A stretch of DNA of 64,000 nucleotides, from the sequence record MG748547; one strand, given 5' to 3'. The position numbers were made by a program, and so were the translations under genes. Source of the stretch: Escherichia phage EP75. Below, one piece after another: positions 3,803-3,853 of this stretch. The notes beneath the pieces are model-generated. The model saw only the letters and a program-made list of their open reading frames with translations, was not told the DNA's origin and did no database searches. Within the stretch, counting starts at the first letter, position 1, and every line of letters begins with the position of its first letter.

Positions 3803-3851
3803 CTATTGAAGTCTCTGGGGTTATAATAGCATGACGAATAACCCTGGAGAC
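3803..3851 (+). promoter_or_regulatory. Promoter in hairpin that sequesters the ligase SD
   Basis: Inverted box CTATTGAAG 3803-3811, N10, TATAAT 3822-3827. 14-bp stem 3811-3824/3838-3851 (2 G-T) pairs TCTCT with the SD GGAGA. Confidence 0.55.
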
Positions 3852-3853
3852 AC

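Follow-up and report, generated by a model that had tools for sequence, protein, structure and literature searches.

Heavy read-through transcription is typical of tightly packed phage genomes. Can translation of a gene in such a genome be tied to the gene's own promoter by the nucleotides directly in front of it? The question is raised by a 64,000-nucleotide stretch of Escherichia phage EP75 (MG748547; hereafter the window), in which a hairpin upstream of the DNA ligase gene holds the Shine-Dalgarno (SD) sequence in its 3' arm and a -10-like TATAAT at the junction of its 5' arm and loop. A preliminary description of this sequence had proposed that the hairpin hides the ribosome-binding site (RBS) in read-through transcripts and leaves it free in transcripts started at the internal promoter, that the same geometry precedes the gene of a pyridoxal phosphate (PLP)-dependent enzyme, and that phage T4 uses this logic for genes e, soc and 49. 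This interpretation is partly supported by our analysis. With a probability of roughly 0.55, we read both sites as compact cassettes in which the same nucleotides provide a promoter and a translational mask, the transcript from the cassette's own promoter being the one that is translated.

Geometry and folding of the ligase and PLP hairpins

By its sequence the window is assigned to a Kuttervirus (ViI-like phages, Ackermannviridae). A search with bases 3000-6000 gave matches to 218 phage records, headed by Salmonella phage vB_SalM-LPST94 (hereafter LPST94; 99% identity) and followed by PhiSH19, Det7 and CBA120 relatives. The LPST94 annotation was transferred onto the window, and its full genome, 99% identical, was used for genome-wide ranking of 197 genes.

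At the ligase site (+ strand), sequence and folding agree exactly with the stem first described. The 5' arm GTCTCTGGGGTTAT (3811-3824) and the 3' arm ATAACCCTGGAGAC (3838-3851) form 14 base pairs as RNA, including two G-U pairs (3816/3846 and 3817/3845), around a 13-nt loop (3825-3837). TCTCT (3812-3816) is paired with the SD GGAGA (3846-3850), and TATAAT (3822-3827) spans the junction between arm and loop, the 5' arm occupying the promoter spacer and the first 3 nt of the -10 box. An upstream box, TATTGAAG (3804-3811), lies at about -30 to -23 from the predicted start and is part of a bipartite motif, TATTGAA-N11/12-TATNNT. The ligase gene (474 aa; window positions 3857-5281, identified through the LPST94 annotation) begins at the second of two tandem in-frame ATGs (3854-3859). 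Only ATG 3857 is kept among relatives, in which ATG 3854 is ACG or AAG; ATG 3854 was thus ruled out as the start, and ligase open reading frames (ORFs) listed from 3854 are one codon too long.

The PLP site was described at first without its strand, which is minus; the stem, the SD AGGAG and the TATGAT in the loop were given correctly. The inner stem, CTCCTGTAGA (49904-49895) with TCTACAGGAG (49874-49865, containing the SD AGGAG at 49869-49865), is a perfect 10-bp helix in RNA sense and encloses a 20-nt loop with the -10-like TATGAT (49884-49889). An outer helix of UUCUAU (49911-49906) and AUAGAA (49862-49857) extends the pairing to the A of the AUG, so that the two arms cover 49895-49911 and 49857-49874. 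The gene itself (48532-49857) encodes 441 aa in the window; annotators differ on its start, the LPST94 product being 397 aa long. The predicted short leader of this gene starts at or near the AUG of a 7-codon mini-ORF (AUG UCU ACA GGA GAA AUA GAA UGA; 49857-49877), whose stop codon overlaps the PLP start codon (AUGA) and which is retained in an ATGCCT variant.

Could such palindromes arise by chance? Hairpin stability was assessed as folding energy against 200 dinucleotide shuffles, and by a scan of the minimum free energy (MFE) of all 48-nt windows. The ligase hairpin folds at -20.4 kcal/mol (z = -3.07) and the PLP hairpin at -25.1 kcal/mol (z = -4.25), with 0 of 200 shuffles equally stable in either case. 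In the 48-nt scan (mean -7.5, standard deviation 3.6) they score -20.3 and -21.1, near the 0.2 and 0.1 percentiles. Since 162 loci of the window reach -16 or lower, hairpin stability by itself is not unique, and this count is what could be said for functionless palindromes. What goes beyond chance is conservation combined with a precise arrangement, in which the hairpin contains a -10 box, its 3' arm holds the SD and the intergenic gap measures 61-69 nt. The geometry recurs across the genome, and chance is effectively refuted by the conservation of both cassettes as islands between non-homologous flanks; we regard it as extremely improbable. No Rfam 15 covariance model matched 3700-3950 or 49780-50000 at E <= 1.

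The accessibility of the SD was expressed as the free-energy cost of making its positions single-stranded, in long leaders of 160 nt and in short leaders folded from a predicted start 7 nt past the -10 hexamer (sigma-70 geometry). In the long leaders, which represent read-through RNA, the folded SD is base-paired at both sites, with a probability of being unpaired of 0.002. Opening it is predicted to cost 11.6 kcal/mol in the long and 4.0 in the short ligase leader, and 13.1 and 1.8 kcal/mol, respectively, in the PLP leaders. For comparison, the 197 LPST94 genes have a median cost of 4.0 kcal/mol, with just 20 of them at 8 or above. The claim that a start at the internal -10 box frees the SD is thus upheld in the folding model, where the predicted start removes the 5' arm and lowers the cost by about 8-11 kcal/mol. 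Co-directional genes end 61 and 69 nt upstream of the two genes, and our scans detected no terminator-like site between the upstream gene and either hairpin, so that read-through into both genes is expected. The hairpins were also considered as intrinsic terminators themselves and rejected: their tails, ACACAUGAUG and AAAUAGAAUG, contain no U-tract, and both are missing from the terminator scans.

RNA running on from the co-directional upstream gene thus folds into a stable hairpin with the SD as its 3' arm. Under the preferred reading, RNA polymerase would start about 7 nt after the -10 box, near 3834 (+/-2) on the + strand and near 49877 on the minus strand, and the resulting transcript, with a leader of about 20-23 nt and devoid of the 5' arm, would expose its SD. 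Synthesis of the ligase and PLP proteins would then depend almost entirely on their own promoters, with translation insulated from upstream transcription. The promoter would belong to a phage-specific class with TATTGAA near -30 and TATAAT, lacking a -35 element and distinct from the late type; the same grammar, combined with a late-type motif, would operate at nine or more other genes of the phage.

Conservation of the cassettes and the putative promoter class

About 270 phage records carry the ligase cassette; they come from Kuttervirus, Agtrevirus, Limestonevirus, Taipeivirus and unclassified Aglimvirinae. Across 18 Ackermannviridae contigs from IMG/VR (19 sequences in the alignment) the cassette is 79-98% identical, yet half of these contigs (9 of 18) have non-homologous sequence (50-59%) in the 70 nt upstream. 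TATAAT is unchanged in all 19 sequences, next to ten loop positions (alignment columns 47-56) that vary freely, and the box TATTGAAG is at least 90% conserved in 19 relatives. Also conserved are the stem-base GTC, which lies in the promoter spacer, and the leader ATAACCC, invariant except in Salmonella phage CRW-SP2; both are kept though no promoter rule calls for either. Because the spacers of other copies of the bipartite motif are unrelated to that of the ligase site, conservation of the ligase spacer is better explained by pairing than by promoter rules. Consistent with this view, 96-98% of the stem cells in the alignment are standard pairs, compared with 26-54% after a shift of the partner by 1-3 columns. 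The stems, whose absence from relatives had been set beforehand as the outcome that would overturn the masking proposal, are kept in relatives, and the proposal survives this check.

Variation within the ligase stem passes through G-U: one pair occurs as GU, AU or GC and another as UG or CG, and in CRW-SP2 a two-sided compensatory change at the stem base turns G-C into A-U. CRW-SP2 was the one useful new variant, accompanied by one duplicate, in a search of phage collections for further cassettes; a metagenome scan gave one duplicate variant only, and an alignment-based scan of viral contigs, run for additional covariation diversity, gave nothing new. These patterns bear on the possibility that the inverted repeat over the -10 box acts as DNA, namely as an operator for a dimeric phage regulator, a cruciform or a recombination site. 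At both sites the repeats are centred on a promoter-like element, a recurrent box (TTCAATAA, complement TTATTGAA) stands near -10 boxes in both orientations, as protein-binding sites do, and the conservation of the PLP cassette between unalignable flanks is extreme. However, the ligase repeat matches at only 12 of 14 positions as DNA and is perfect as RNA, its variants keeping the pairing only if G-U is admitted, a dependence that favours RNA over DNA pairing as far as the alignment can tell. Moreover, the arms are 13-20 nt apart and wholly different in sequence between the two sites, which leaves no common operator, and the SD falls on the 3' arm at both sites as well as at the late-type sites described below. 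We therefore consider a DNA-level element very unlikely.

The PLP cassette, 65 nt long, is 97-100% identical in 17 loci, whereas the 70 nt on either side are only 51-61% identical. It is flanked by the C-terminus of the upstream gene and by the first ~46 codons of the PLP gene (49720-49857, minus strand), which are hypervariable in sequence and length among relatives. Such variable flanks are compatible with recombination at the cassette, and the stretch beside the hypervariable 5' codons may represent a recombination junction. A repeated or mobile element was rejected as an explanation, the PLP cassette being single-copy in the window and present once per genome in 16 IMG/VR contigs; the ligase cassette is single-copy as well, and only the short bipartite motif is repeated. 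Near-invariance also makes the 65-nt cassette a handy genus-spanning marker. In Miltonvirus phages and one further relative, the same AAGGAGA is masked by another 5' arm, TCTCCTTG, which exists in the Kuttervirus PLP cassette as an unpaired upstream copy; TACAAT lies inside the alternative hairpin, and the Miltonvirus homologues carry TATTGAG-N11-TACAAT at the same place. To judge from these sequences, the structure of the PLP mask has turned over while its function appears to have been kept.

What kind of promoter could the -10 boxes belong to? Two standard classes were considered for both sites and rejected: a canonical sigma-70 promoter, as a -35 element is missing and neither site was listed by sigma-70 scans, and a late promoter, as neither cassette contains (C/T)TAAATA or TATAAATA. 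The bipartite motif offers a third. TATTGAA-N11/12-TATNNT occurs in 5 copies in the window compared with 0.16 expected (0 of 100 shuffles), an enrichment of about 30-fold, and 4 of the 5 copies are intergenic and directed at a gene. A second layout, TTCAAT-N14/15-TATWAT, likewise occurs 5 times in the window compared with 0.13 expected. More generally, the intergenic box TTCAATAA adjoins -10 boxes in both orientations and with several spacings: as TTCAAT-N14-TATWAT, inverted as TATTGAA-N11-TATAAT, and within the spacer of TTTACT-N16/17-TATAAT. The LPST94 genome contains about 17 intergenic sites of the first two layouts or of the TTTACT class with TTCAATAA in its spacer. In Serratia phage IME250 the ligase cassette reads TGGTATAAT, an extended -10 box gained at the cost of two stem pairs. 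Taken together, these sequence patterns make it probable that the TATAAT of the ligase site is a genuine promoter element, belonging to a phage-specific class marked by a box near -30; the TATGAT of the PLP site would be a weaker member. Early or middle is our best guess for the timing of this class. According to Kutter et al. (2011, PMC3184105), ViI-like phages have gp55, gp33 and gp45 and no MotA, AsiA, Alt or ModA; the late motif was unidentified in that study and early promoters could not be found.

Several observations count against reading the two sites in this way. No -35 element (at least 4 of 6 matches, 16-18 nt from the -10 box) is present at either. A loose -10-like hexamer stands upstream of 41% of genes, and such hexamers show no enrichment among masked genes (5/13 compared with 76/184); because they are common and not enriched, the promoter call rests on the invariance of the box and on the TATTGAA-N11-TATAAT motif. 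Covariation in the ligase stem, though positive, is thin, its score of 0.153 (shuffled mean 0.125; reached by 11 of 500 shuffles) being of a size that, as the tool warns, occurs in 5-25% of unconstrained alignments. The PLP cassette is invariant as a whole, so that its -10 box is not separable from the structure. In Dickeya phage LIMEstone1 this cassette is missing and replaced up to the SD: at ~1440-1500 another gene extends to AAGGAAAATAGAATG, which puts the replacement junction at the SD, and the PLP hairpin is, on the evidence of this one comparison, dispensable or substituted in that lineage. The ligase cassette was not found in Miltonvirus 3M (ligase 52% identical) or in Vibrio phage K388 (37%). 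The short ligase leader is predicted to retain a weak alternative pairing of its SD, worth 4 kcal/mol. Finally, a search of the accessible literature found no transcript maps for Kuttervirus or Ackermannviridae, nor any measurements of 5' ends, promoter activity or translation in a ViI-like phage.

The missing -35 element and the abundance of -10-like hexamers would be accommodated if the hairpins were real and TATAAT and TATGAT were no promoters. The SD would then be masked constitutively, with translation depending on coupling, on the helicase action of upstream ribosomes or on a trans-acting factor. A homologue of the RegA translational repressor, a type of regulator that would fit such a scheme, is solidly identified in LPST94 (PF01818, E = 4e-35), outside the window, although no RNA-level regulators were reported by Kutter et al. 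(2011, PMC3184105). Against this explanation stand the invariance of TATAAT beside a variable loop, the enrichment of the bipartite motif and the extended -10 box that IME250 has gained at the expense of its stem. In addition, 16 nt separate the upstream stop codon from the ligase hairpin and more than 60 nt separate it from the AUG, a distance beyond the reach of ordinary coupling. We consider a hairpin without a promoter unlikely. Protection from a RegB-like nuclease cutting at GGAG was a further candidate; it was dropped, as the sole domain match of the LPST94 protein annotated as 'RegB endoribonuclease' is to an SLT transglycosylase, at threshold. This annotation is thus doubtful by Pfam; the doubtful and the solid member of the pair lie at LPST94 2742-3359 and 35777-36241.

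Sister hairpins and known systems

In T4, genes e (lysozyme), soc, 49 and I-TevI carry RBS-sequestering hairpins with an internal late promoter, TATAAATA, and in the case of lysozyme such masking reduces synthesis 100-fold (PMC3014915). The ligase and PLP sites resemble them in that the SD and/or AUG would be buried in long transcripts and the putative promoter is placed so that its own transcript would lack the 5' arm. They differ in the promoter, which at both sites would consist of a sigma-70-type -10 box and a box near -30 and not of the gp55 late motif. The T4 precedent of e, soc and 49 had thus been cited correctly at the outset, without regard to the late promoter of the T4 cases, which is absent here. 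Because both sites have a sigma-70-type -10 box with neither a -35 element nor a late-type motif, the temporal logic of T4 is not simply transferable. The regulated genes serve replication and DNA modification, functions that are early or middle in T4; given these functions and the non-late promoter, the mask probably provides insulation or dosage and not a delay to late times.

Much closer counterparts of the T4 genes came to light when the LPST94 genes were ranked by the cost of opening the SD. In 11 of the 12 most masked cases, a promoter-like motif lies in or at the 5' arm, and in 9 of the 12 this motif is of the late type, (C/T)TAAATA or TATAAATA, and stands right at the beginning of the arm; the remaining three are the ligase gene, the PLP gene and one terminator beside a doubtful TTG start. 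The association of the late motif with masked SDs is significant (p = 4.5e-5). If transcription starts 6 nt after the motif, as in the T4 rule, late-type leaders would shed their 5' arm and opening the SD would become 5-15 kcal/mol cheaper. The genes masked in this way include those for the endolysin, two tail-fibre or tailspike proteins, a neck protein, a baseplate wedge and a DNA helicase. These sister sites match the T4 arrangement almost exactly. The endolysin gene (LPST94 10884-11678) has the same late-type design and mirrors T4 gene e. CTAAATA is accordingly proposed, from its position at these sites, as a candidate late promoter of the ViI family.

Five late-type sites lie in the window, their 3' arms (for example GGGGTAT, GGAGAT or GAGGA) providing the SD of a structural or late gene. 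At 59879-59918 (+), CTAAATA is followed by a hairpin (59882-59895/59905-59918) that masks an AGGGG SD-like run ahead of a tail-fibre gene (ATG 59923), and at 63004-63040 (+), CTAAATACCCC is combined with GGGGTAT before a tailspike gene (ATG 63044). At 56017-56059 (+), CTAAATA and a hairpin mask the GGAGA of the baseplate wedge gene (ATG 56064), and at 37941-37970 (minus strand), TATAAATA and the hairpin UCCUUGCUU/AAGUGAGGA mask the SD of gene 37765-37932. The fifth, at 48495-48525 (minus strand), consists of CTAAATACCCCATAC, a loop and GTGTGGGGTAT and precedes gene 48043-48492, directly downstream of the PLP gene. It is matched in 21 of 22 sequences, 18 of these 21 having the complete hairpin with an invariant stem and a variable loop, and two relatives keep the late motif without the hairpin. 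The preliminary description was right about the two sites that it named, which are real, and about a geometry that recurs, the same grammar being found genome-wide in LPST94; it had missed the cases closest to T4, those at 59879, 63004, 48525, 56017 and 37970.

The second group of sister sites, that with the box and TATAAT, tells a different story. Of the 11 such sites in the window, 8 have their -10 box within or at the loop of a stable hairpin. In 6 of these 8 the 3' arm stops before the SD, with a predicted start at the 3' arm or past it; T-runs come after several of them, which are terminator-like. These sites add to the evidence against the preferred reading: the hairpin around the -10 box may primarily serve insulation or termination, with SD overlap as a secondary matter, in the manner of the promoter-early stem-loops (PeSLs) known from the T4-type phages RB49, phi1, PST and nt-1 (Arbiol 2010, PMC2839356; Comeau 2014). 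In PeSLs, an intergenic promoter is combined with a stem-loop located between the -35 and -10 elements or over the -10, the SD and start codon lie at the 3' end, and the units sit between variable genes (Arbiol et al. 2010, PMC2839356); the ligase and PLP cassettes are alike in their overlap with the -10 box, the position of the SD and their intergenic setting. By contrast, PeSLs have consensus -35 and -10 elements, form ~100-bp repeats in hyperplastic regions and terminate transcription.

If the ligase and PLP hairpins were composites of this kind, they would primarily be attenuators, terminators, processing sites or 3'-end stabilisers of the upstream transcript joined to a restart promoter, and SD pairing would be a by-product of the short intergenic space. 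Besides the 8 of 11 sites, the position of the PLP cassette between two variable flanks, like a shuffling junction, fits this explanation, and the LIMEstone1 authors' own annotation has a promoter that overlaps a terminator in the homologous upstream region, with nothing at the ligase. Yet neither hairpin has a U-tract or appears terminator-like in scans, their loops (13 and 20 nt) exceed those of the terminator-like sisters, and each cassette occurs in a single copy instead of forming a family of ~100-bp repeats. Here it is the SD itself that forms the 3' arm, the SD-pairing base of the ligase stem is conserved and holds the one compensatory change, and distant relatives swap the 5' arm of the PLP hairpin while the SD stays masked. 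We regard the composite explanation as rather improbable, and prefer to see the ligase and PLP hairpins as translational insulators and the sister hairpins of the box class as transcriptional ones.

The box promoters also invite comparison with T4 middle promoters, in which a MotA box at -30 is joined to a sigma-70 -10 box. Both have a box near -30, a -10 about 11-14 bp downstream and no -35. However, TATTGAA/TTCAATAA (TATTGAAG at the ligase) is not related in sequence to the MotA box, (a/t)(a/t)(a/t)TGCTT(t/c)A, and is found in both orientations with several spacings, and ViI-like phages are reported to be without MotA and AsiA (PMC3184105).

An RBS-masking hairpin with an internal promoter is a known kind of regulation that was not described before in Ackermannviridae. 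It is possible, though in our estimation doubtful, that in ViI-like phages (Kuttervirus and neighbouring genera) a promoter within an SD-masking hairpin is a genome-wide grammar, with late CTAAATA(CCCC) at nine genes or more, the endolysin gene among them, and a second class, TATTGAA/TTCAATAA, at the ligase and PLP genes. Should this hold, the second class could be the 'missing' early or middle promoters of Kutter et al. (2011) and would imply an unknown activator or modification of RNA polymerase. If the masking reading of the two sites is right, translation of the ligase and of the PLP enzyme, a member of the thymidine-hypermodification set, would be tied to their own promoters and shielded from heavy read-through, and the principle of T4 e, soc and 49 would extend to Ackermannviridae and to a non-late promoter class. 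The motifs supply candidate late and early/middle promoters for ViI-like phages. These phages are widely used in biocontrol and therapy, and insertions near the cassettes or cassette swaps would change expression in engineered derivatives.

Recurrent box sites and neighbouring genes in the window

Copies of the bipartite motif other than that at the ligase include TATTGAA-N12-TATACT at 14210-14234 and TATTGAA-N11-TATAAT at 19648-19671 (both minus strand), with the -10 box in the hairpin AAGGGGAAG/CTTCCCCTT in the former and in the loop of GGCGG/CCGCC in the latter; the SD is uninvolved in both. The TTCAAT-N14 layout is found on the minus strand with TATTAT at 34596-34621 and 37720-37745, each time in the loop of a strong terminator-like hairpin, the outer helix at the second site covering the SD AAGGA, and with TATAAT at 42337-42362, in the loop of AGGGGGA/TCCCCCT. 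Further recurrent box sites lie at 5306-5331 (+) and 55738-55763 (minus strand), and also at 1856-1896 and 46280-46320 (+). Two of those listed belong to paralogous terminator-promoter cassettes of the form GTTCTTCAATAAAGGGG...TATTAT...CCCCTTT, located 3 kb apart at 34566-34627 and 37685-37764 (both minus strand) and folding at about -31 and -33 kcal/mol. In both, outer helices join the region of the TTCAA box to that of the SD downstream.

The ligase gene is part of a + strand block (59-6434) that encodes a primase-helicase, several small ORFs, the ligase and a helicase loader. On the minus strand, the DNA polymerase gene (42363-45359) is a single continuous ORF in the window. In LPST94 the polymerase is annotated as two pieces, split by an 879-nt gene noted as 'putative intron I-LimII'; the phage of the window therefore lacks this insertion. 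An otherwise unannotated 3.7-kb gap (51435-55131) contains a cluster of tRNA genes, Tyr-GTA, Asn-GTT and Met-CAT (51918-52733, minus strand), and a CTAAATA motif follows immediately after the tRNA-Met.

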